Notes under the pieces: model-generated | What the model saw: the letters and a program-made list of their open reading frames with translations, nothing else | Told to the model about the DNA's origin: nothing | The model's database searches: none | In this document: positions 1,795 through 49,759 of the stretch, piece by piece | How positions within the stretch are numbered: position 1 is the stretch's first letter | Layout of the letters: each line of letters starts with the position of its first letter | Position numbers and translations under genes: made by a program | Assembly (NCBI GenBank): GCA_963716195.1 | Contig: OY970293.1 | Location: 1,014,119 to 1,078,118, forward strand | Direction of reading: 5' to 3' | Length of the DNA: 64,000 nucleotides | DNA from: an uncultured Solirubrobacterales bacterium | Lineage (GTDB): Bacteria > Actinomycetota > Thermoleophilia > Solirubrobacterales > JBBDJG01

Positions 1795-2403
1795 ATGGAA
1801 GCAGCACCGCCGCAAGCACCGCCTCCGTCCGCCGCCGGCTACCCGGCTCGCTTCGACATCGAATATCCGCAGAGCCTGTCGCGCTGGAAGATCTTCGTCA
1901 AATGGCTCCTGGCGATCCCGCACTTCATCATCATCTACCTGCTGCAGGCGGTGAACTCCATCCTGGTCTTCATCGCTTTCTTCGCGATCCTGTTCACCAA
2001 GAGGTGGCCGCGGGGCCTGTTCGATTTCTCGGTCCAGATCCAGCGCTGGACGTTCAACGTCTATGCCTACGCGGTGACTCTCCAGCGCGACGAGTACCCG
2101 CCGTTCACGGGGGAGACCGGTCAGTACCCGGTGACGCTCGAGGTGGAGTACGACGACAACCTGTCGCGCTGGCAGATCTTCCTGAAGTGGCTGTTCGCGC
2201 TGCCGCACCTGATCATCGTCACGTTCCTCGCGCTCGCCGCGATCATCGTGGTCTTCATCGCCTTCTTCGCGATCCTGTTCACGGGCAGGTACCCGCGCGG
2301 GATGTTCGACTTCGTGACCGGCACCCTCCGCTGGTACACGCGCGTGAACGCATACGCCTTCTGGCTGATGACGGACCGGTACCCGCCCTTCTCCCTGGAC
2401 TAG
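1795..2403 (+). CDS. DUF4389-like membrane protein with two tandem repeats
   Basis: ATG 1795 is preceded by GGAGGAG. The repeats are (YPQSLSRWKIFVKWLLAIPHFIIIYLL...FAILFTKRWPRGLFDF) and (YDDNLSRWQIFLKWLFALPHLIIVTFL...FAILFTGRYPRGMFDF). Track ORF 1627..2403 has an implausible Arg-rich N-extension overlapping the M48 gene. Confidence 0.8.
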   Translation: MEAAPPQAPPPSAAGYPARFDIEYPQSLSRWKIFVKWLLAIPHFIIIYLLQAVNSILVFIAFFAILFTKRWPRGLFDFSVQIQRWTFNVYAYAVTLQRDEYPPFTGETGQYPVTLEVEYDDNLSRWQIFLKWLFALPHLIIVTFLALAAIIVVFIAFFAILFTGRYPRGMFDFVTGTLRWYTRVNAYAFWLMTDRYPPFSLD

Positions 2404-2502
2404 GAAAGGCCGTCATTTCCTTAGGCGGAAATGACGGGAGCTCCGAGGGTCCGGAAAGGCCGTGATTTGCTTAGACGCAAATCACGGGAGCCCCGAGGGT
2501 CC
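2403..2502 (+). repeat. Two tandem 50-nt units of an intergenic hairpin repeat (REP-like)
   Basis: Unit 1 (2403-2452) is GGAAAGGCCGTCATTTCCTTAGGCGGAAATGACGGGAGCTCCGAGGGTCC. Unit 2 (2453-2502) is GGAAAGGCCGTGATTTGCTTAGACGCAAATCACGGGAGCCCCGAGGGTCC. Each has an 11-bp stem and 6-nt loop (2410-2437, 2460-2487), and the stem differences are compensatory. Confidence 0.85.
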
Positions 2503-2535: not shown

Positions 2536-3729
2536 ATGAACGTCTTCAACAAGGACTATCTGATGACGGCGGGTCCCACCCCGCTGCCGCCGAGCGTGTC
2601 GCAGGTGATGGCCGAGCCCATCTTGTATCACCGCGCGCCGGTCTTCATCGAGATCTACGAGCGCGTGCTGGAGCGCCTCAAGATGGTGTTCCAGACCGAG
2701 AACGACGTGCTGGTGTTCGCGTCCTCCGGTACCGGCGGGATGGAGTCGGCGGTCGCGAACCTGATCGCGCCCGGCGACAAGGCGCTGGTGGCCTCCTGCG
2801 GCAAGTTCGGCCAGCGCTGGGCGGAGCTGTGCGAGGTCTACGGCGCCGACCTCTATCACCACGACGGTGAATGGGGCGCGCGGATCGAGCCCGAAGAGCT
2901 CGAGCGCGCCTTCCAGGGCGCCGGCGACGACGTGCGTGCGGTCTTCACCACGCAGTCCGAGACCTCGACCGGCGTCCTGAACGACGTCGCGGCACTCACG
3001 GAGGTCGCGCACCGGCACGGCGCGCTCATGTGCGTCGATGCCGTGTCGGGCCTCGGGGTGGTTGATCTGCCGACCGACGCCTGGGGCGTCGACGTGGTCG
3101 CGTCGGGATCCCAGAAGGCGCTCATGTGCCCGCCCGGCCTCGGGTTCGCCGCGGTGTCGGAGAACGCACTCGCCGCGGCGAGTGTCGCCCGCAAGCACGG
3201 CGCGCGCACCTATTACTTCGACTGGGAGAAGACCGTCAAGGGCCAGCGAAAGTCACCGGCTGACAGCCCGTTCACGCCGCCGGTGACGCTCTTCCGCGCC
3301 CTCGACGTCGCGCTGGAGCTGATCGAGCGCGAGACGCTGGCTGGCGTCTTCGAGCGCCACGCCGTGCTCGGCCGCGCCGCCCGGCAGGCGGTCAAGGCGC
3401 TGGGCCTCGAATTGTTCGGTCCCGAAGACGAGAACGCGAACGTCGTGACCGCCGTCAAGGTTCCCGACGGCGTGGACGGTACAGCCGTTCCGAAGCTGAT
3501 GCGCGACCGCTACCGGGTCACCGTCGCAGGCGGCCAGGGTCATCTGAAGGGCAAGATCGTGCGGGTCGCGCACTGCGGCTACTACGGGGCGTTCGACATC
3601 CTGAGCACGACCGCCGCGCTCGAGATGGCGTTGAGCGAGCTCGGCGCCGAGGTCAACCTCGGCGCCGGCGTCGCAGCAGCGCAGCAGGTCTTCCTCGAGG
3701 CCGGTGTGCCCGTGGCGCAGCCGGTCTAG
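2536..3729 (+). CDS. Class V pyridoxal-phosphate aminotransferase (serine-glyoxylate / phosphoserine aminotransferase type)
   Basis: MNVFNKDYLMTAGPTPLPPSV start at ATG 2536 and the PLP-lysine region SGSQKALMCPPGLGF. It lies directly upstream of serA. The upstream part of track ORF 2431..3729 lies in the repeat element. Confidence 0.85.
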   Translation: MNVFNKDYLMTAGPTPLPPSVSQVMAEPILYHRAPVFIEIYERVLERLKMVFQTENDVLVFASSGTGGMESAVANLIAPGDKALVASCGKFGQRWAELCEVYGADLYHHDGEWGARIEPEELERAFQGAGDDVRAVFTTQSETSTGVLNDVAALTEVAHRHGALMCVDAVSGLGVVDLPTDAWGVDVVASGSQKALMCPPGLGFAAVSENALAAASVARKHGARTYYFDWEKTVKGQRKSPADSPFTPPVTLFRALDVALELIERETLAGVFERHAVLGRAARQAVKALGLELFGPEDENANVVTAVKVPDGVDGTAVPKLMRDRYRVTVAGGQGHLKGKIVRVAHCGYYGAFDILSTTAALEMALSELGAEVNLGAGVAAAQQVFLEAGVPVAQPV

Positions 3730-3737
3730 GGCTAGGC

Positions 3738-5372
3738 GTGACAGCCGGCAACCACTACAAGGTCCTGGTCAAGGAGAAGATCGCCGACACCGGCGTCTCG
3801 CTGCTGCGCGAGCACTTCGACGTCGATGTCCTGGTCGAGATGCCCGACGACGAGCTGCGCGAGGCGATCGCCGGCTACGAGGGGATCGTGATCCGCTCCG
3901 CGACGAAGATGACCGCCGAACTGATCGAGCGCGCCGAACGTCTCAAGGTGATCGGACGCGCGGGGATCGGGGTCGACAACGTGGACGTGCCCGCCGCGAC
4001 GAAGCACGGAATCATCGTCGCGAACGCGCCGGAGTCGAACACAGTCGCCGCCGCCGAGCAAACGATTGCGCTGATGCTGGCTCAGGCCCGCAACGTTCCG
4101 CAGGCGCACGCCTCACTCAAGGCGGGCAAGTGGGAGCGGAGCAAGTTCGGCGGGGTGGAGGTGTTCGAGAAGACGCTAGGCATCCTCGGCTTCGGGCGCA
4201 TCGGCCAGCTGGTGGCGCAACGGGCGCGCGGGTTCGGCATGAACGTGGTCGCGTTCGATCCCTATGTATCGGCGGAGAGGTTCCGGGAGCTGGGCGTCGA
4301 GCACGCGGCGGACGTGAGCGACGTCTATGCCCAGGCCGACATCATCACCATCCACCTGCCGAAGACGCCGGAGACGACGAACTTCCTGAACGCCGGGGCG
4401 TTCGCCGAGATGAAGGACGGCGTCCGGATCGTGAATTGCGCGCGGGGCGAGCTGCTCGACCTGGACGCCCTGAAGGGCGCGATCGAGTCGGGCAAGGTCG
4501 CCGGCGCGGGACTGGACGTGTTCCCCGCCGAGCCGATGACCGAACATCCGATCTTCGCGCTCGAGAACGTGGTGGTGACTCCCCATCTCGGCGCATCTAC
4601 GACCGAGGCGCAGGACCGCGCGGGCGTGATCACGGCCGAGCAGGTCGTGGCTGCTCTGACCGGAGGCCTCGTCACGAACGCGGTCAACATCCCGACCATT
4701 CGCGGCGAGGACCTCGCCGTGCTCGAGCCGTACATGCCGCTGGCCACCCAGCTCGGCCGGCTGGCGATGTCGCTCGCAGCCCGCACCTCCGTCGACCGCA
4801 TCGAGATCTCGTTCCTCGGCCGGCTTGCCGAGTTCGACACGCGCCTCGTCACGCTGTCCGTCCTGAACGGCGCCCTGGCCGGCCGCATCGAGGAGAACGT
4901 GAACCTGGTGAACGCCTCGACCATCGCCGAGGACAGGGGGATCGGCGTCGTCGAGACGAAGGAGCACGAGCTGCGCGACTACGCGAACCTCCTGTCCGTC
5001 GCGGTCGTCGCCGACGGTGAGCGCGTCGAGGTCGCCGGCACGACGTTCGGCCCGCGCCACGTGCCCCACCTCGTCGGGGCATACGGGCAGAGCTTCAACA
5101 TCGAGCTTGCCCAGCACATGTTGATCTTCCGCTACTCCGACGTGCCCGGCATGATCGGCAAGATCGGCACCGTGCTCGGCGAGCACGGCATCAACATCGC
5201 CTCCACGGCCGTCGGTCGCGAGCCCGACCACGAGCCGGGCCGTCCGGCAGGCGGAGGAAGCGGCCGGCTGGCAGTCATGGTCGTCACCACCGACTCGCCC
5301 GTGCCCGAGGAGACGCTCGCTGCGATCGTGTCGCTCGAGGGCTTCCAGGACGGGCACGCCGTAACCCTGTGA
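3738..5372 (+). CDS. serA: D-3-phosphoglycerate dehydrogenase, long form with C-terminal regulatory domains
   Basis: 544 aa with the NAD-binding motif GILGFGRIGQLVA, a 2-hydroxyacid dehydrogenase catalytic region and an ACT-like C-terminus (MLIFRYSDVPGMIGKIGTVLGEHGINI). Confidence 0.9.
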   Translation: MTAGNHYKVLVKEKIADTGVSLLREHFDVDVLVEMPDDELREAIAGYEGIVIRSATKMTAELIERAERLKVIGRAGIGVDNVDVPAATKHGIIVANAPESNTVAAAEQTIALMLAQARNVPQAHASLKAGKWERSKFGGVEVFEKTLGILGFGRIGQLVAQRARGFGMNVVAFDPYVSAERFRELGVEHAADVSDVYAQADIITIHLPKTPETTNFLNAGAFAEMKDGVRIVNCARGELLDLDALKGAIESGKVAGAGLDVFPAEPMTEHPIFALENVVVTPHLGASTTEAQDRAGVITAEQVVAALTGGLVTNAVNIPTIRGEDLAVLEPYMPLATQLGRLAMSLAARTSVDRIEISFLGRLAEFDTRLVTLSVLNGALAGRIEENVNLVNASTIAEDRGIGVVETKEHELRDYANLLSVAVVADGERVEVAGTTFGPRHVPHLVGAYGQSFNIELAQHMLIFRYSDVPGMIGKIGTVLGEHGINIASTAVGREPDHEPGRPAGGGSGRLAVMVVTTDSPVPEETLAAIVSLEGFQDGHAVTL

Positions 5373-5767: not shown

Positions 5768-6793
5768 GTGAAGGCGCTGATGCTCGTCAAGGCTGGGCCG
5801 CCCGAGCAGGCGCTCGAGGTGCGCGACGTTCCCGACCCGACGCCGGGCAACGGAGAGGTGTTGATCGACGTTCGGGCCGCGGGGCTGAACTTCGCCGACG
5901 TGATGGCCCGGGCCGGCCTCTATCCCGACGCCCCGAAGACTCCCTGCGTGATGGGCTACGAGGTGGCGGGAGTGGTCAACAGCGCGGGGAACGGCGTCGA
6001 GCGCTTCGAACCGGGGCAGCGGGTGGTCGCTGCGACTCTCTTCAACGGCTTCGCGGAGCGCGCGGTTGCGATGGCCACCGACGTGCTCCCGCTGCCGGAG
6101 GGGATGAGCTTCGAGGAGGGCGCGGCCCTGCCTGTCGCCTATGGGACTGCTTACGCAGCGGTCGGCCTGCTGGCGGCCGTGCGCCCAGGCGAAACCGTGC
6201 TCGTCCACGCGGCGGCCGGCAGCGTCGGCATTGCCGCGACCCAGTTGCTGCGCGACCGAGGGGCCGAGGTGATCGGCACCGCCTCGGCGTCCAAGCACGA
6301 CGCGATCCGCGCGCAGGGCGTCTCGCACGCGATCGACTATCGCACCCAGGACTTCAGGCAGGAGGTGCAGCGGATCACCGGCGGCCAAGGCGTCGACGTC
6401 GTGCTCGACGCACTCGGCGAGTTCAGGAGCAGCTACGCATCGCTGCGCCCGGGCGGGCGGCTCGTCATGTACGGGGCCTCGAAGCTGCTCACGGGCGATC
6501 GGCGCAATCTCGTCAGGACGATCCGGACCGTCGCCACGCTGCCTCGCTTCAACTCGCTCAAGCTCATGAACCAGAACAGGTCCGTCATGGGGCTCAACCT
6601 GCTCAAGTTGTGGCAGGCACGTGGTTCGCTCGAGGAGCTGATCGAGCCGCTCACCGACCTGGTCCAACGTGGTGTCGCGAAGCCCGTGGTGGCGAAGGTC
6701 TTCCCGTTCTCTCAAGCCGCCGCCGCCCACCGCTTCATCCAGGAGCGCCAGAACATCGGCAAAGTCGTTTTCGTACCGGACTCCGTCCTGTAG
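5768..6793 (+). CDS. Zinc-type (MDR) alcohol dehydrogenase / quinone oxidoreductase family protein
   Basis: GEVLIDVRAAGLNFADV and the nucleotide-binding stretch GETVLVHAAAGSVGIAATQL, with a C-terminal GKVVF-type ending typical of the quinone oxidoreductase/VAT-1 subgroup. Confidence 0.85.
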   Translation: MKALMLVKAGPPEQALEVRDVPDPTPGNGEVLIDVRAAGLNFADVMARAGLYPDAPKTPCVMGYEVAGVVNSAGNGVERFEPGQRVVAATLFNGFAERAVAMATDVLPLPEGMSFEEGAALPVAYGTAYAAVGLLAAVRPGETVLVHAAAGSVGIAATQLLRDRGAEVIGTASASKHDAIRAQGVSHAIDYRTQDFRQEVQRITGGQGVDVVLDALGEFRSSYASLRPGGRLVMYGASKLLTGDRRNLVRTIRTVATLPRFNSLKLMNQNRSVMGLNLLKLWQARGSLEELIEPLTDLVQRGVAKPVVAKVFPFSQAAAAHRFIQERQNIGKVVFVPDSVL

Positions 6794-6803
6794 GATCTGG
6801 GTC

Positions 6804-6935
6804 GTGAACGTGAGGACCTCAGCACCGGCTCTTCTCACTCGCGGCCGTGCGCTTGCCCTCGCGCCCTCGGAGCTCCCGGAATTTGCGCCTAAGCAAATTC
6901 CTGCTCTTCTTCTCCTCCCCCTGCGGGGGGAATAG
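6804..6935 (+). promoter_or_regulatory. Candidate leucine-rich leader ORF / attenuator region upstream of leuA
   Basis: The frame ends ...IPALLLLPLRGE-stop with codons CTT CTT CTC CTC CCC CTG at 6906-6923 and TAG 6933-6935. A C5/G5 hairpin (6917-6929) overlaps the Leu run, and a perfect 16-nt palindrome GCGGGCCGCGGCCCGC follows at 6943-6958. The only in-frame starts are GTG 6804/6810. Confidence 0.3.
6864..6909 (-). repeat. Third locus of the hairpin repeat family, inverted orientation
   Basis: The reverse complement reads CAGGAATTTGCTTAGGCGCAAATTCCGGGAGCTCCGAGGG. It has the same TTAGGC loop and GGGAGCTCCGAGGG flank as 2403-2502, with a different but still complementary stem (6878-6901). Confidence 0.7.
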
Positions 6936-7003: not shown

Positions 7004-8614
7004 ATGACCGAATCACGCCCAGCGGGGGGCCAGAGCCCGAACGGAAAGCAGCCGGACCGCGTATTCATCTTCGACACGACGCTGCGCGACGGCGAGCAGT
7101 CGCCCGGCATCTCGCTCAACGTGCAGGAGAAGCTCGAGATCGCCCACCAGCTCGCGCGCCTCGGCGTCGATGTGATCGAGGCCGGTTTCCCGATCACCTC
7201 GCCCGGCGACTTCAAGGCGGTGACGGCGATCGCGAAGGCGGTCGAGGGCCCCGTGATCTGCGGGCTGGCGCGCACGGCGTCGCAGGACATCGACACCGCC
7301 TGGAACGCGATCAAGCACTCGGAGCGCCCGCGTATCCACACCTTCATCTCGACCTCGGACATTCACATCCGCCATCAGCTGCAGACCACGCGCGACGACG
7401 TCAAAGGCCAGGCACGGGCGGCGGTCGCGCATGCGAAGCAGTACTGCGACGACGTCGAGTTCTCGCCGATGGACGCCACGCGCGCCGACGTCGAGTTCAC
7501 GGCGGAGGTGTGCCAGATCGCCGTCGAGGAGGGAGCGACCACCATCAACGTTCCCGACACGGTCGGCTACACGATGCCGCACGAGTACGCCTCGCTGTTC
7601 GCCGATCTGCTTCGCCTCGTGCCGCAGTTGAAGGACGTCGTGCTCTCGGTTCACTGCCACGACGACCTCGGTCTCGCCGTCGCCAACTCGTTCGCGGGGC
7701 TGACGGCCGGTTGCCGGCAGGTGGAGTGCGCCGTGAACGGCATCGGCGAGCGCGCCGGCAACGCATCTCTCGAGGAGATCGTGATGCTGCTCAGGACGCG
7801 CTCCTCCTCGGTCAACCTGGACACCAAGCTCAACACGGGTGAGCTGGCCCGCACCAGCCGCCTCGTTTCGCGGCTGACCGGCTATCCGGTGCAGCCCAAC
7901 AAGGCGATCGTCGGCCGCAACGCGTTCGCCCACGAGTCCGGCATCCACCAGGACGGCGTCCTCAAAGAGCGCACCACGTACGAGATCATGGATGCCCGCA
8001 CGGTGGGTCTGGAGACGAACTCCATCGTGCTCGGAAAGCACTCGGGCCGGCATGCGCTGCGCCAGGCGCTCGAGGAGCTCGGCTACAAGATCTCCGGCCA
8101 GGCGCTCAACACGGCCTTCAAGCGGTTCAAGGAAATCGCTGACAAGAAGAAGCACGTGACGGCGATGGACCTCGAGGCGCTCGTCACGGACGAGATTCGC
8201 GAGCAAGCGGAGGCCTACAACCTCGCGGCGTTCGAGCTGCACGACTCCTCCAGCGAGGCGCCGCGGGCGCGGGTGACCGTGACCACGCCGGAAGGCACCT
8301 CGGTGAGCGGAGAGGGAAGCGGCGACGGGGCGGTGGACGCGCTCTTGAAGGCGATCAACACGGCGATCGGCAAGCCGGCCGTGCTGAAGGAGTACCACGT
8401 CAGCGCGGCAACGGCGGACACCGACGCAATCGCCGAGGTGTCCACCCTGGTAGAGCTCGACGGCAGACTCGTGTCCGGCCAGAGCATCTCCACCGATACG
8501 CTCGAAGCGACGGCGCGTGCCTACCTGCGGGCCGTGTCGAACGCGATCGCCGGGGGGACCGGGTCGGCCACTGAGCCATCGCTCGCGACGCCGCTCCCGA
8601 GTGAGCGCGGCTAG
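7004..8614 (+). CDS. leuA: 2-isopropylmalate synthase
   Basis: FIFDTTLRDGEQSPG, HCHDDLGLAVANS and a C-terminal LeuA dimerisation/regulatory domain. RBS GGAGAAGGAG lies upstream of ATG 7004. Confidence 0.95.
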   Translation: MTESRPAGGQSPNGKQPDRVFIFDTTLRDGEQSPGISLNVQEKLEIAHQLARLGVDVIEAGFPITSPGDFKAVTAIAKAVEGPVICGLARTASQDIDTAWNAIKHSERPRIHTFISTSDIHIRHQLQTTRDDVKGQARAAVAHAKQYCDDVEFSPMDATRADVEFTAEVCQIAVEEGATTINVPDTVGYTMPHEYASLFADLLRLVPQLKDVVLSVHCHDDLGLAVANSFAGLTAGCRQVECAVNGIGERAGNASLEEIVMLLRTRSSSVNLDTKLNTGELARTSRLVSRLTGYPVQPNKAIVGRNAFAHESGIHQDGVLKERTTYEIMDARTVGLETNSIVLGKHSGRHALRQALEELGYKISGQALNTAFKRFKEIADKKKHVTAMDLEALVTDEIREQAEAYNLAAFELHDSSSEAPRARVTVTTPEGTSVSGEGSGDGAVDALLKAINTAIGKPAVLKEYHVSAATADTDAIAEVSTLVELDGRLVSGQSISTDTLEATARAYLRAVSNAIAGGTGSATEPSLATPLPSERG

Positions 8615-31435: not shown

Positions 31436-31977
31436 TTTCACCGTCAAGATATGAAGGGCATACGGTGGATGCCTTGGCACCAGGAGCCGAAGAAGGACGT
31501 GGACGGCTGCGATAAGCCACGGTGAGGCGCTGAACAGCCTTTGACCCGTGGATGTCCGAATGGGGAAACCCGGCGCTGGTAATGCGGCGTCATCCCGTGC
31601 TGAATACATAGGCACGGGAAGGCAAGCGGGGGAAGTGACACATCTCAGTACCCCGAGGAAAGGAAATCAACCGAGACTCCCTGAGTAGTGGCGAGCGAAA
31701 AGGGAATAGCCCAAACCCGGCAGGTGTAAGCGGGCACGCGTTGCCTGCTGGGGGTTGTAGGGCGTCTGTTCCGGGCTGTGCCTGGCCCGGCGGGAGTTAC
31801 AAAGTCATGCGCTAGCCGAAGCACGTGGAACCGTGCACCACAGAGGGCAATCGTCCCGTAGGCGAAAGTGTGTGACCTCCCGCAGATGTCCCTGAGTAGG
31901 ACCGTGCCCGTGAAACGCGGTCTGAACCTGGGGGGACCACCCTCCAAGGCTAAGTACTCCCTGGTGACCGATAGCGG

Positions 31978-32011
<34 letters not shown>

Positions 32012-32567
32012 GGAAGGGGAGTGAAATAGTACCTGAAACCGTGTGCCTACAAGCGGTCGGAGCACTTCGGTGTGACGGCGTGCTTTTTGCAGAACGAGCC
32101 GGCGAGTTACTCGTCTGTGGCGAGGTTAAGCGATGAGCGGAGCCGTAGCGAAAGCGAGTCCGAACAGGGCGAATCAGTCGCAGGCGGTAGACCCGAAACC
32201 GAGCGAGCTACCCATGGGCAGGTTGAAGCGGGGGTAAGACCCCGTGGAGGACCGAACCGACCTAGGTTAAAAACTGGGCGGATGACCTGTGGGTCGGAGT
32301 GAAAGGCTAATCAAGCTCGGAGATATCTGGTTCTCTCCGAAATATATTTAGGTATAGCCTCCGGTTATTGCGTAATGGCCGTAGAGCACTGCTTGGACTA
32401 GGGGCCCTACCAGGTTACCGAATTCAGGCAAACTCCGAAGACCATTATGTGAATCCGGGGAGTCAGTCCGTGGGGGATAAGCTTCACGGTCGAGAGGGGA
32501 ACAACCCAGACCACCAGCTAAGGTCCCTAAGTGCTAGCTAAGTGGGAAACGATGTCTGAATGCTCAG

Positions 32568-32616
<49 letters not shown>

Positions 32617-33207
32617 CAGCTCACTGGTCAAGTGTTCGGGCGCGGACAATGTAACGGGGCTCAAGCTAGCCACCGAAGCTGTGGGTTCGGCGATCCTTCG
32701 GGATCGTCGAGCGGTAGGAGAGCGTTCTGTTGCCAGCGAAGCGGCGGCGTAAGCCAGCCGTGGAGGCAGCAGAAGTGAGAATGCCGGCATAAGTAACGAA
32801 AGAGGGGTGAGAATCCTCTCCGCCGATTGTCCAAGGTTTCCTGAGTAAAGCTCGTCTGCTCAGGGTCAGTCGGGACCTAAGGCGAGGCCGAAAGGCGTAG
32901 CCGATGGCCAACGGGTTGATATTCCCGTACCACGTCACATCCGTTTGACCGATTGGGGTGACGAGGAAGGGTAGGGGAACCCAGGCGATGGTCGTCCTGG
33001 GGTAAGCGCGTAGCTAGCGGCCGTAGGAAAATCCGCGGTCGTGTTGATGCGAGGCGCGATGCCAGCTGGCCGAAAGGCCGGCGAGTCCCCGAACCCATGC
33101 CTCCGAGAAAAACCTCTAGGGAGGATGTGCGTGCCCGTACCAAAACCGACACAGGTGGACAGGCAGAGAATGCCAAGGCGATCGAGATAACCTTCGTTAA
33201 GGAACTC

Positions 33208-33244
<37 letters not shown>

Positions 33245-33432
33245 CCGGTAGGGTGAAGCCACTTGCTGGCGGAGCCCGAGGGGGCCGCAGTGAAAAGGCC
33301 CAAGCGACTGTTTACCAAAAACACAGGCCTCTGCTAAGTCGTAAGACGACGTATAGGGGCTGACGCCTGCCCGGTGCCGGAAGGTTACGCGGAGGTGTTA
33401 GCCGCCCTTCGGGGTGGCGAAGCACCGAAGCT

Positions 33433-34292
<860 letters not shown>

Positions 34293-34551
34293 CGACTTGG
34301 GCGCTGTCTCAACGAGGGGCTCGGTGAAATTGTAGTCTCGGTGAAGATGCCGAGTACGCGCGGCAAGACGGAAAGACCCCGTGAACCTTTACTACAGCCT
34401 GATATTGGAGTCTGGGGCATCTCGCTCAGGATAGGTGGGAGGCTTTGAAGCAGTGGCTTCGGCTGCTGTGGAGCCAACCTTGAGATACCACCCTTGATGT
34501 TCTGGGCTTCTAACACCTCACCGTGAAGCCGGGAGGTGAACAGTGTCAGGT

Positions 34552-34583
<32 letters not shown>

Positions 34584-34676
34584 ATGTAACGGAGGCGCCC
34601 AAAGGTTCCCTCAGCACGGTTGGAAATCGTGCGTAGAGCGTAAAGGTATAAGGGAGCTTGACTGCGAGACTGACAG

Positions 34677-34712
<36 letters not shown>

Positions 34713-34733
34713 CGGTTGCAAGTGGAAGCGCCG

Positions 34734-34776
<43 letters not shown>

Positions 34777-34815
34777 GGGCCCAAGAGTCCACATCGACGG
34801 CCCGGTTTGGCACCT

Positions 34816-35121
34816 CAACCATGGGGTGAGCCAGTCGAAATACTGGCTTTAGCATCGGCTAATAACGGTGGAGCCCACCTGCCTGTGCGTTTAGAACGAC
34901 GCGAAAAGGATGGGTAATACCGTGGGAAGTCTGTCGGAAGGGAAGACCATTAGAAGCGTCCCTCCGCAAGTGACCCCGTAACGACTGAGGCACTCGGTGC
35001 CGAGGTGGCGATCCTGCTCCAAAAGGGGCAAATCCTGGACGCCACAATACGCCGACCCCTCGCCTTTGGTCAGGCAGGGTGAAGTTATAGTCTGCGCCAC
35101 CGGTAACGGTGGAATTACGTG
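34816..35121 (+). mobile_element. ORF-less group I intron at 23S position equivalent to E. coli U2500|C2501
   Basis: The 5' exon ends in U (34815) and the intron ends in G (35121). P1 pairs CACCU (34811-34815) with GGGUG (34824-34828), with a U.G wobble at the splice site. An R-like element ACGACTGAGGCACTCGGTGCC lies at 34981-35001, an S-like AAGTTATAGTC at 35082-35092, and a GNRA-capped hairpin CCACCG-GTAA-CGGTGG at 35097-35112. Confidence 0.85.
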
Positions 35122-35237
<116 letters not shown>

Positions 35238-35621
35238 TGCCGTGCGCGTTGGAGAGTTGAGGGGAGTCGTCCCTAGTACGAGAGGACCGGGATGAACGGA
35301 CCGCTGGTGTATCTGTTGTCCTGCCAAGGGCACTGCAGGTTAGCTACGTCCGGACGGGATAACCGCTGAAGGCATCTAAGCGGGAAGCCCACCTCGAGAT
35401 GAGCTCTCCCATCCCCTTGAGGGAGTAAGACCCCTGGTAGACCACCAGGTTGATAGGCCGGATGTGTAAGCGCAGCAATGTGCTCAGCAGACCGGTACTA
35501 ATGGGTCGAGGGCTTGACGGATATTTTTTGCTCTTGTCCTGTGCCAACTGTGCAGTTTTGAGGGTTCGGGAGAGGCCGCCGGTGCGTCGGAAGCGGTTCG
35601 CCGGGCCGACGTGACAACAGT

Positions 35622-47986: not shown

Positions 47987-49258
47987 GTGGCCGACGCCGG
48001 AGACACGGGCTCGCGCCGGCGACGATCGCGCCTCCTGACATTCATCGCAATCGCTGTGGTCCTCGGTGCTGGAGCGATCGCCGTTGCAGCGCTGTCGTCG
48101 GGTGACGACGTCCAGGAGGACACTGTCGGGACGGCACCCGGCAATACGACGACCGAGCCGACAGGGGCGACCGCCAGCGGGAGCGCGAGCGCCGAGGAGG
48201 CCCGGCGCCGCGTTCGCCTGAAGCGCATCGGCACGTTCGACGACCCCGTGTTCGTCACCGCACCTCCCGGCGACCAGCGCCACGTGTTCGTCGTCGAGCA
48301 AACGGGGCGAATCTCCGTGCTGCAGGGCGGGCGGCGCACCGGCCGTCCGTACCTCGACATCAGGGGGCTGGTCACCAGCGGTGGTGAGCAGGGACTCCTG
48401 TCGATGGCGTTCGCTCCCGACTACGCGCGCAGCGGCCGCTTCTACGTCTACTACACCGACAACGACGAGAAAGAGGTGGTCGCGGAGTTCAGGCGCTCGA
48501 GCGCCACGCGCGCCGACCGGTCGACTCGCAGGCAGGTGATGCGGATGGACGATCCGTTCCCGAACCACAACGGCGGGCTGCTTCTGTTCGGCCCCGACGA
48601 CCTGCTCTACATCGGGACAGGCGACGGCGGCAGCGGTGGCGACCCGTTCAACAACGCGCAGAACCTGAACTCACTGCTCGGCAAGATCCTGCGTATCGAT
48701 CCGCGGCAGTCGGGCTCGAGCCCTTACAGGGTGCCCGGCTCGAACCCCTTCGTCGGCCGCAACGGGCGTGACGAGATCTACGCTTATGGCCTGCGCAACC
48801 CGTGGCGGTTCTCGTTCGACCGCCGCACCGGCGACCTCTACATCGGTGATGTCGGCCAGGACTCGCGCGAGGAGATCGATTTCGCCCGCCGCGGCGGCGC
48901 CAAGGGACGCAACTACGGCTGGAGCTGCTTCGAGGGCAAGCGCCGCTACGACGATTCCCGCAACTGTCCGGGCGCCTCGCCGCCGGTTCTGGACTACGAC
49001 CGCTCGGACGGTGAATGCTCGGTGACGGGCGGGTTCGTCGTGCGCGACCCAGGGCTGACGGCACTGCGCGGACGCTACGTATACGGCGACTACTGCCGGG
49101 GTCAGATCAGGAGCCTGCGGATATCGGGCGCTCGCGCCACTGACGACGGCTCCCTGGGGCTGAGCGTGCCCGAGCTGAGCTCCTTCGGGCAGGACGCACG
49201 CGGGCGCGTCTACGCGACGTCTCTGAACGGGCCGGTGTACCGGCTCACATCCCGCTGA
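47987..49258 (+). CDS. PQQ-dependent sugar (glucose/sorbosone) dehydrogenase family beta-propeller, membrane-anchored
   Basis: RRRRSRLLTFIAIAVVLGAGAIAVAAL anchor. Also GEQGLLSMAFAPDY, HNGGLLLFGPDDLLYIGTGDGGSGGDP, LLGKILRIDP, YAYGLRNPWRFSFD and GDVGQDSREEI. GTG 47987 was chosen because upstream codons overlap the DDN gene. Confidence 0.8.
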   Translation: MADAGDTGSRRRRSRLLTFIAIAVVLGAGAIAVAALSSGDDVQEDTVGTAPGNTTTEPTGATASGSASAEEARRRVRLKRIGTFDDPVFVTAPPGDQRHVFVVEQTGRISVLQGGRRTGRPYLDIRGLVTSGGEQGLLSMAFAPDYARSGRFYVYYTDNDEKEVVAEFRRSSATRADRSTRRQVMRMDDPFPNHNGGLLLFGPDDLLYIGTGDGGSGGDPFNNAQNLNSLLGKILRIDPRQSGSSPYRVPGSNPFVGRNGRDEIYAYGLRNPWRFSFDRRTGDLYIGDVGQDSREEIDFARRGGAKGRNYGWSCFEGKRRYDDSRNCPGASPPVLDYDRSDGECSVTGGFVVRDPGLTALRGRYVYGDYCRGQIRSLRISGARATDDGSLGLSVPELSSFGQDARGRVYATSLNGPVYRLTSR

Positions 49259-49298
49259 GCTCCCGTCATTTCCGTCTAAGGAAATGACGGCCTGTTCC
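49252..49298 (-). repeat. Fourth copy of the hairpin repeat family, inverted, wedged between two convergent stop codons
   Basis: The reverse complement reads GGAACAGGCCGTCATTTCCTTAGACGGAAATGACGGGAGCTCAGCGG, with the stem at 49263-49290. It overlaps TGA 49256-49258 of the + gene and abuts the stop (49298-49300) of the - gene. Confidence 0.8.
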
Positions 49299-49759
49299 TA
49301 GACGGGGCAGGCCGCCAGCGCCTCCAGGTACTCCTCCTGGTTCCGCGCCTCGCCGGGGTGCGTGACGATCTTGCGGGCGATCTTGCCGTCCTTGTCGATC
49401 ACGAACGTGGCACGCGTGGCGATCCCCGCCTCGTCGATGTATGCGTCGTACTGCTTTGCGATCGCGCCCTTCGGGTGGAAGTCGGACACCAGATGCGCTT
49501 TCAGGTTCTCGTCGCGCTTGAAGGCGTTCATCACGAACGGGCTGTCAACCGAGATCCCGACCACCTCGGCTCCGGCGGCGTCGTACTTCTCTGCCTCCCC
49601 GGTGATGTCCACCAGCTCCTTCGTGCAGGTTCGGCTGAACGCAAGGGGGAAGAACACGAGCAGGACGTTGCGGCCGCGCAATGACGACAGCTTGAACTCT
49701 TCGAAGTTCTCGTCGCGGGTGGTGAAATCGGGCGCCTCGTCTCCGACCTCTAGTGCCAT
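49298..49759 (-). CDS. Peroxiredoxin (AhpC/TSA family, Bcp/AhpE-like)
   Basis: GDEAPDFT...VLLVFFPLAFSRTCTKEL carries the peroxidatic Cys motif. 153 aa. Confidence 0.9.
   Translation of the reverse strand: MALEVGDEAPDFTTRDENFEEFKLSSLRGRNVLLVFFPLAFSRTCTKELVDITGEAEKYDAAGAEVVGISVDSPFVMNAFKRDENLKAHLVSDFHPKGAIAKQYDAYIDEAGIATRATFVIDKDGKIARKIVTHPGEARNQEEYLEALAACPV

Follow-up and report, generated by a model that had tools for sequence, protein, structure and literature searches.

A REP-like hairpin repeat family at gene 3' ends in uncultured Solirubrobacterales

Repetitive extragenic palindromes (REPs) are small palindromic units with a conserved unpaired tag at one end. They lie mainly between convergent or co-directional genes, with convergent copies less than 20 bp from both 3' ends and co-directional copies adjoining the 3' end of the upstream gene; some of their termini supply stop codons, and several families may share one genome (Di Nocera et al. 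2013, PMC3733652). The REPIN/RAYT system and the ends of IS200/IS605 elements are likewise built around hairpin-centred, non-autonomous units that leave no target duplication, are polymorphic for gain and loss, and have a stem recognised as a structure beside a short conserved sequence (PMC3116915, PMC6006769). Here, we analyse a stretch of 64,000 nucleotides (hereafter, the window) from an uncultured Solirubrobacterales bacterium (assembly GCA_963716195.1, contig OY970293.1, positions 1,014,119 to 1,078,118 of the forward strand), in which four copies of an intergenic hairpin repeat share these traits, presumably including the mode of recognition.

The four copies belong to a real and apparently undescribed hairpin repeat family of Solirubrobacterales (Thermoleophilia, Actinomycetota), that is, of soil actinobacteria. 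Its unit of 45-50 nt consists of an A-rich 5' flank (GAAYARKK), an 11-bp hairpin with the stem consensus CCG-[G/T]-N-W-TT-Y-S-C, a 6-nt loop (TTAGNC) and a tail (GGGAGCTCYG, optionally followed by AGGG); the hairpin measures 28 nt. The family is dispersed, descended by copying, divided into subfamilies and situated almost only at gene 3' ends, and it behaves like small mobile REP repeats and not like a gene-specific regulator. About 25 conserved nucleotides that do not pair recur at more than 100 unrelated gene ends, which requires a copying process. The data also require that some constraint or correction preserve complementarity between the arms regardless of sequence, that loop and tail stay constant and that insertion leave no target duplication. 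We consider it somewhat better than an even bet (probability roughly 0.55) that these sequences form a lineage-specific, REP-type family of miniature repeats, non-autonomous, probably mobilised in trans and transcribed as a 3'-end hairpin.

The window contains exactly four copies, at three loci:

2404-2452, + strand: copy w1, with 5' flank GAAAGG (2404-2409), 5' arm CCGTCATTTCC (2410-2420), loop TTAGGC (2421-2426), 3' arm (2427-2437) and tail GAGCTCCGAGGGTCC (2438-2452)
2453-2503, + strand: copy w2, head-to-tail with w1, with 5' flank GGAAAGG, 5' arm CCGTGATTTGC (2460-2470), loop TTAGAC (2471-2476), 3' arm (2477-2487) and tail GAGCCCCGAGGGTCCG
6864-6903, - strand: copy w3, with tail GAGCTCCGAGGG (the reverse complement of 6864-6875), 3' arm (6876-6886), loop (6887-6892) and 5' arm CAGGAATTTGC (6893-6903); 10 of 11 pairs form and one is an A.G mismatch
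49251-49297, - strand: copy w4, with 5' flank GAACAGG (49291-49297), 5' arm CCGTCATTTCC (49280-49290), loop TTAGAC (49274-49279), 3' arm (49263-49273) and a shortened tail GAGCTCAGCGGG (49251-49262)

Across these copies the 5' flanks are A-rich (GAAAGG, GGAAAGG, GAACAGG or GAAGAAGAG), the loops read TTAGGC or TTAGAC, and the tail is GGGAGCTCCGAGGG or a near variant. The pattern TTAGRCNNAAAT has exactly four matches in the window and, with one mismatch allowed, five, against 0.56 expected and with none of 100 shuffles reaching five. A covariance model built from 104 copies returns the same four (w1, 69.5 bits; w2, 56.2; w3, 63.3; w4, 58.6), all within 56-70 bits and with E <= 2e-13, the next independent match in the window scoring 14 bits. 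The 14-nt tail alone, with 3 mismatches allowed, is not above chance in the window and becomes significant only in combination with the hairpin. As RNA, the hairpin regions have predicted folding energies of -16 to -23 kcal/mol (-22.9 for w1). Sequence, pattern and model matches thus bear out the four positions given in the initial annotation, and so does its observation that stem differences between copies are matched on the other arm, every one of them being compensated.

The copies stand in unrelated settings. w1 begins immediately past the stop codon (TAG, 2401-2403) of a DUF4389 gene, w2 differs from it by two fully compensated base-pair swaps, and the start codon of an aminotransferase gene follows at 2536, 33 nt past w2. 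w3 is intergenic, 70 nt from the upstream stop, and antisense to both of its + strand neighbours, a Zn-dependent dehydrogenase gene (Zn-ADH, 5768-6793) and a leuA-like gene (7004-8614). w4 occupies the gap left between the stop of a peroxiredoxin gene (49298-49300, - strand) and the GSDH gene that converges on it; the GSDH stop TGA (49256-49258) falls within the shortened tail of w4, and the stem of w4, CCGTCATTTCC, is identical to that of w1 at an unrelated locus of the same genome. Beside w3, upstream of the leuA-like gene, a hairpin made of G and C only (CCCCC-TGC-GGGGGG, 6917-6930) is also kept next to element copies in another contig, L022 (about 225-245), and may be a separate terminator or leader element. 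Upstream of w1, two DUF4389 genes bracket an M48 peptidase gene (256-546, 630-1760 and 1795-2403), an arrangement kept in relatives.

Beyond the window, copies were sought in two scans. The first, covering one genome per species, required the loop, the tail and a portion of the 3' arm and placed no demand on the 5' arm; of its 10 loci, nine lie in uncultured Solirubrobacterales/Actinomycetota metagenome-assembled genomes (MAGs) and have, without exception, a perfectly complementary 5' arm. The tenth, in Paenibacillus, lacks a hairpin and was discarded as a chance match. The second scan, of metagenome contigs, fixed loop and tail only and left both arms free, and since such a pattern does not demand pairing, it is a fair test of the hairpin. 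Its 98 stretches, mostly from soil, comprise a large majority of perfect or near-perfect 11-bp hairpins, half copies right behind a full copy, and about 18 unpaired chance matches. After removal of duplicates, 105 unique full copies are left, with 34 different 5'-arm sequences, almost all perfectly complementary. Copies found by the covariance model independently of the patterns bring in a third loop, TTAGCC, and additional stems; TTAG-C and GGGAGCTCYG persist in these copies and what follows varies, so that the constant core can be taken as the first 10 tail nucleotides plus a loop in which the fifth base may vary. The repeat family with conserved loop and flank proposed in the initial annotation is therefore not confined to the window, more than 100 further distinct copies being present in MAGs and soil metagenomes.

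The lack of a recognised named family also stands. Against Rfam, the rRNAs alone reach the gathering score in the window, and a permissive search of 2350-2560 gives best matches of 10-15 bits (E > 0.7), with no family match even at E <= 10. No match was found by blastn in a plasmid collection, and the 10 pattern matches in IMG/VR viral contigs, none confirmed by the model, are all attributable to chance. Literature on repeats of Solirubrobacter and Thermoleophilia and on RAYT in Actinobacteria yielded nothing relevant. CRISPR arrays and type III antitoxin arrays do not fit the architecture and were rejected.

Pairing is maintained in the stem while its sequence changes. In the alignment of 104 sequences, from which copies with fewer than 9 of the 11 pairs were excluded, pairing holds in 98.8% of cells, and double changes occur at 6 of the 11 pairs. 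Variation is nearly absent from three pairs at the base (CCG/CGG), two T-A pairs in the centre and the C-G pair that closes the stem; the other five vary with compensation, position 4 being G-C or U-A, position 5 any of the four Watson-Crick pairs, position 6 U-A or A-U, position 9 U-A or C-G, and position 10 G-C or C-G. Cells changed on both sides number 203, compared with 67 +/- 10 after shuffling, a count in which evolutionary events are over-represented because the members are related by descent. The covariation score is 0.447, against 0.113 for shuffled alignments and 0.02-0.12 when the partner column is slid, and G-U pairs are nearly absent (7 of 1144 cells). Covariation in this larger alignment thus far exceeds both controls. 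The suggestion in the initial annotation that the element is maintained as a folded nucleic acid holds, as does that of covarying stems, with the qualification that much of the covariation lies between copy-descent subfamilies of an element polymorphic for gain and loss, so the constraint may act on propagation rather than on host function.

Matched arms do not by themselves imply selection, and hairpin-templated repair through intrastrand template switching might keep them so, in which case the covariation would be uninformative on function. The stems are indeed perfect and not merely pairable, as the scarcity of G-U pairs illustrates, and the copies are young enough to be polymorphic between relatives; such repair leaves unexplained, however, why loop and tail stay fixed beside changing stems, where the copies are placed and why they fall into subfamilies. 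We regard it as an improbable account of the family; it concerns how stems change and is compatible with a REP-type origin.

The placement of the copies relative to genes was read with coding frames called from the contrast between GC3 and GC2. Among 80 informative arrays, a co-oriented gene precedes 54, and for 41 of those the first base of its stop codon is 3-15 nt ahead of the stem, the positions peaking at -5 (TAAnn abutting the stem) and -10 (TAGAACAATT abutting the stem); two genes terminate at the TAG within the loop. On the downstream side, 36 arrays meet a convergent gene, with its stop mostly 1-12 nt past the tail. Where both sides could be classified (n = 45), 19 arrays are convergent, 18 co-directional in sense, 7 co-directional in antisense and 1 divergent, so divergent (promoter) spacers are avoided. 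Stops beside sense copies are TAA in 14 cases, TAG in 16 and TGA in 7, whereas background stops at the same loci are TAA in 33, TAG in 128 and TGA in 150, a 3.5-fold enrichment of TAA (p = 5e-6); the A-rich flank of the element thus often supplies the stop, as TAA or TAG. The ten upstream proteins sampled (L27, deformylase, PntB, a B12-binding mutase subunit, lipoamide dehydrogenase, a LuxR regulator, DAHP synthase, a glyoxalase, CorA and a PD-(D/E)XK nuclease) are mutually unrelated, and their Pfam matches reach the C-termini; the upstream genes are thus diverse housekeeping genes with natural ends. A role of the tail as a Shine-Dalgarno sequence was rejected, since a start codon lies within 12 nt in only about 6 of 26 co-directional cases and convergent copies have no downstream gene to serve.

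This distribution is, point for point, that of REP elements (PMC3733652). REPs in the sense of Di Nocera (2013) and Quentin (2018) are further defined as palindromes of 20-40 bp at many extragenic sites, and the 28-nt hairpin with its 105 unique copies across MAGs and metagenomes falls within that description, as does a placement of 19 convergent and 25 co-directional arrays to 1 divergent. The host phylum, Actinomycetota, is absent from the REP survey (PMC3733652). The initial annotation did not recognise it as a named REP, and while no named family fits, its genomic behaviour is REP-like (PMC3733652).

The same placement bears on the idea that the repeat is a double-stranded DNA site for a dimeric protein, such as an operator or a nucleoid or partition site. 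The arms are perfectly inverted-symmetric, and the tail holds a second, 8-bp palindrome, GGAGCTCC. Yet the 34 arm sequences coexist, several of them in one genome (as in the window and in the MAG of contigs L003 and L006), and could not all be read by one protein; the invariant loop, tail and A-rich flank are asymmetric; and the copies sit at gene ends, with a single classified array in a divergent spacer. We judge such a site very unlikely.

Comparison with relatives shows that the element comes and goes as a unit. At the peroxiredoxin/GSDH junction the window reads GTC TAG, then GAACAGG-hairpin-GGGAGC, then TCA; in contig L109, with a peroxiredoxin 97% identical, the junction reads GTCTAACGTG, the two stops overlapping by 4 nt with nothing between them. 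The same 4-nt overlap is found, from gene coordinates alone, in a contig at 91% identity, and the site is also empty in L115 and L116 (76%) and in L117 (70%), a Solirubrobacterales MAG with the same synteny. L110 (90%) carries there a complete element of another subfamily (GAAAG-CCGGAATTTGC-TTAGGC-...), and L111 (82%) has a spacer of about 450 nt (3484-3932) with decayed remnants, TAAAGGTCGTGACTAGGC ... CAACGACGGGAGATCAGCGGG, at both ends, which looks as if something else had inserted into a hairpin element. At the DUF4389/aminotransferase junction of the window, the TAG is followed by the 100 nt of w1 and w2 and then by GGAATGCGTTCGCTATTCTCGG; in five contigs (L118-L122; protein 94% identical), the TAG is followed directly by CGCGGGGCCGTTGCTATCCTCGG. 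Two of the three window loci are cleanly empty, then, in relatives whose flanking proteins are 94-97% identical. At both junctions the insert starts right after the third base of the stop codon, neither filled/empty pair shows a target duplication or a remnant, and the covariance model finds no match in the empty loci. Close relatives differ from one another by discrete indels of the element, at about 45 nt for each unit. L109 and L121 come from the same sample, so that plausibly a single close relative lacks both loci. Recent gain in the window lineage is the simpler reading of these pairs. As for the third locus, the sequence upstream of w3 recurs in L022, where it is accompanied by two copies whose stems differ from that of w3; judging from this shared flank alone, L022 may hold the orthologous site. 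In L123 (87%), a cold-shock-domain gene (1561-1797) stands right after the DUF4389 stop, where the window carries w1 and w2, and this spacer seems to be a recurrent insertion point.

Presence/absence polymorphism of a small, dispersed sequence would also be expected of a cut-and-paste miniature inverted-repeat transposable element derived from an insertion sequence (IS) with a DDE transposase, the 11-bp arms being its terminal inverted repeats. Neither filled/empty comparison shows the target-site duplication, however, the arms are just 6 nt apart with conserved flank and tail outside them, and they vary around a constant loop, the reverse of the usual terminal-repeat pattern. Such an origin is highly improbable.

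The copies themselves record their descent. Flank type and stem type appear to go together, as read by eye across the copy listings: the flank AACAATT accompanies the stems CCGGTTTTCGC, CCGGATTTTGC and CCGGTTTTTGC; AATAAGG and AATAGG accompany CCGGAATTCGC; and GAAAGG and GAACAGG accompany CCGTCATTTSC. This linkage indicates copy descent from different master copies, and several subfamilies occur per genome, with three stem types in the window and two in the MAG of L003 and L006. After de-duplication 91 arrays remain, with one unit in 72, two in 16 and three in 3; multi-unit arrays run head-to-tail, some with identical 45-nt units (L069, L080) and others with mixed stems (w1/w2, L086, L029); one adjacent inverted pair was seen (L006), between two convergent genes. 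Fifteen partial copies keep the 3' arm and tail without a matching 5' arm; 13 of them occupy the second or third place in an array, another is the first unit of its array, and the last resembles a chance match. The idea of a nick in the loop, with half copies starting there, was rejected on their variable breakpoints. An outer helix between the flanks, present in single-sequence folds, is not conserved across subfamilies.

Intrinsic terminators include the hairpins of paired uptake sequences in Neisseria and Haemophilus. Like such terminators, the element is a stable hairpin with a GC clamp, placed directly behind stop codons and in many cases where two genes converge, and in antisense it has a T-rich tail; ordinary terminators, in contrast, are not known to share a conserved loop or flank sequence across genes. 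In the sense strand the hairpin is followed by the tail GGGAGCUC, which contains no U-tract, and the antisense strand is moderately T-rich; w3 passes a terminator scan as terminator-like on the + strand, where its hairpin precedes a T-rich tail. The excess of 18 sense over 7 antisense copies between co-directional genes argues against canonical termination as the main role.

A wider form of this idea makes the repeat a host-selected RNA module of 3' ends, which would either terminate transcription or bind a protein dedicated to defining or stabilising the 3' ends of mRNAs, its spread being a by-product. Several observations are in keeping with it: the sense excess and the tight fit against stops, the fixity of the loop and first 10 tail nucleotides while five stem pairs vary, the frequent stem differences between adjacent array units, the terminator-like behaviour of w3, and the occupation of the peroxiredoxin and w3 sites in several lineages with differing stems. 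Against this, the genes of close relatives evidently manage without the copies at two of the three window loci, no U-tract follows the hairpin in the predominant orientation, 7 of 25 co-directional copies are antisense, and the upstream genes have no common function. The conserved non-pairing nucleotides, moreover, cannot be convergent, so copying would be needed anyway. We consider a host module possible but unlikely. More specifically, a dedicated Thermoleophilia protein could recognise the loop UUAGNC and tail GGGAGCUCYG in transcripts, whether nascent or mature, or, as a related thought, transposition could truly target the first nucleotides after stop codons; both are rather improbable. 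A dedicated protein would imply sequence-specific, factor-dependent 3'-end formation or protection in bacteria, by a module spread to hundreds of gene ends and functionally analogous to the histone mRNA stem-loop and its binding protein.

Under the REP-type explanation that we prefer, the likeliest agent would be a trans-acting enzyme that recognises the extruded single-stranded hairpin through its invariant loop and tail, much as the HUH/Y1 transposases RAYT and TnpA of IS200/IS605 read REPs and IS ends (PMC6006769, PMC3116915). As the stem would need only to pair, it would drift by compensated changes, and slippage or unequal exchange might subsequently lengthen the arrays. After insertion, each copy would be transcribed within the 3' untranslated region, where in sense orientation a stable hairpin of -18 to -23 kcal/mol without a U-tract may act as a barrier to 3'-exonucleases and not as a canonical terminator. 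In antisense, the A-rich flank would become a T-rich tail and could form a terminator of the intrinsic type, and the 18:7 sense excess between co-directional genes may reflect selection against the terminating orientation inside operons.

Several points weigh against this explanation. No transposase appears among the 25 best-populated of the 66 Pfam families matched by the 46 window proteins, all 25 being housekeeping families. The breakpoints of the partial copies give no support for a defined nick site. Copies occur on both strands with no obvious replication-strand bias (n = 3 loci); the + strand is probably the leading strand, because about 40 of the 46 window genes and the rRNA operon lie on it. 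The GSDH gene ends in CGC-TGA at each of the three filled peroxiredoxin sites, a hint of shared ancestry followed by loss rather than of repeated insertion. Published REPs carry an unpaired GTAG/GTGG or CGTC tag 0-2 nt from the stem; the element's position matrix shows GAAYARKK on one side and GAGCTC on the other, with CGTC inside the stem of one subfamily only, and its tag is GGGAGCTCYG (GAGCTCCC on the other strand). Its stem is perfect where those of REPs are bulged, and its 6-nt loop is conserved in sequence, unlike theirs, for which search rules take loops of 2-5 nt (PMC6006769). It is single or in direct tandem, whereas REPs and REPINs form inverted dimers, and unlike REPIN/RAYT and IS200/IS605 it has neither an inverted doublet nor evidence of a strand bias or a tetranucleotide target. 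The conservation of loop and tail is partly forced by the search patterns, the model-only copies being few, and perfect complementarity could also arise from the templated repair discussed above.

Two genes flanked by inverted element copies were considered as transposase candidates and set aside. A small open reading frame (ORF) of 83-106 aa, the same in L039 (308-628, - strand) and L106 (2653-2904, - strand), lies between two inverted copies; it has no Pfam hit and is not transposase-like. The gene so flanked in L077, judged by eye on its translated sequence, seems to encode a membrane protein of 369 aa.

Two further systems invite comparison. Mycobacterial interspersed repetitive units (MIRU), reportedly described by Supply et al. 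in 1997, are said to be actinobacterial intercistronic repeats of about 50 bp in direct tandem arrays. Like the element, they are oriented with the flanking genes and touch stop or start codons; unlike it, they are not known to be built on a hairpin or to possess a covarying stem, they typically form longer arrays that vary in number, and there is no sequence similarity. Integron attC sites are imperfectly palindromic recombination sites right after the stop codons of cassettes, read as a folded single strand with a variable stem. By inspection, however, the element contains no R''/R' core sites (RYYYAAC...GTTRRRY), and its 28 nt are much shorter; with flanking genes that are housekeeping genes in conserved synteny and not cassettes, attC was rejected.

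Elsewhere in the window, the 23S rRNA gene (31442-35521) is 4080 nt long, compared with a model of 2925 positions. It holds an insertion at about 33466-34178, with an ORF (33592-34146, + strand; 184 aa) matching LAGLIDADG_1 (E = 3.6e-18); a Group I intron match over 33466-34178 is below threshold (26 bits against a gathering score of 50, E = 3.5e-4). The insertion looks like a group I intron bearing a homing endonuclease and covers about 0.7 kb of the roughly 1.1 kb by which the gene exceeds the model.

Copies of the element also matter for annotation, as they create false ORF extensions and can shift called stops. One such case is in the window, where an ATG at 2431, inside the 3' arm of w1, opens a frame through w1 and w2 into the aminotransferase gene; the resulting ORF of 432 aa is spurious, orthologues beginning at the ATG at 2536.

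Finally, the family would extend REP-type miniature repeats to a poorly studied and mostly uncultured order of actinobacteria, and a tag and conserved loop unlike those of the two published super-families would imply a different recognising enzyme. It combines unusually clean natural covariation (34 stems, five variable pairs), filled and empty sites, and elements that donate stop codons, and is thus a convenient system for understanding how such repeats spread and whether their hosts use them as 3'-end hairpins.

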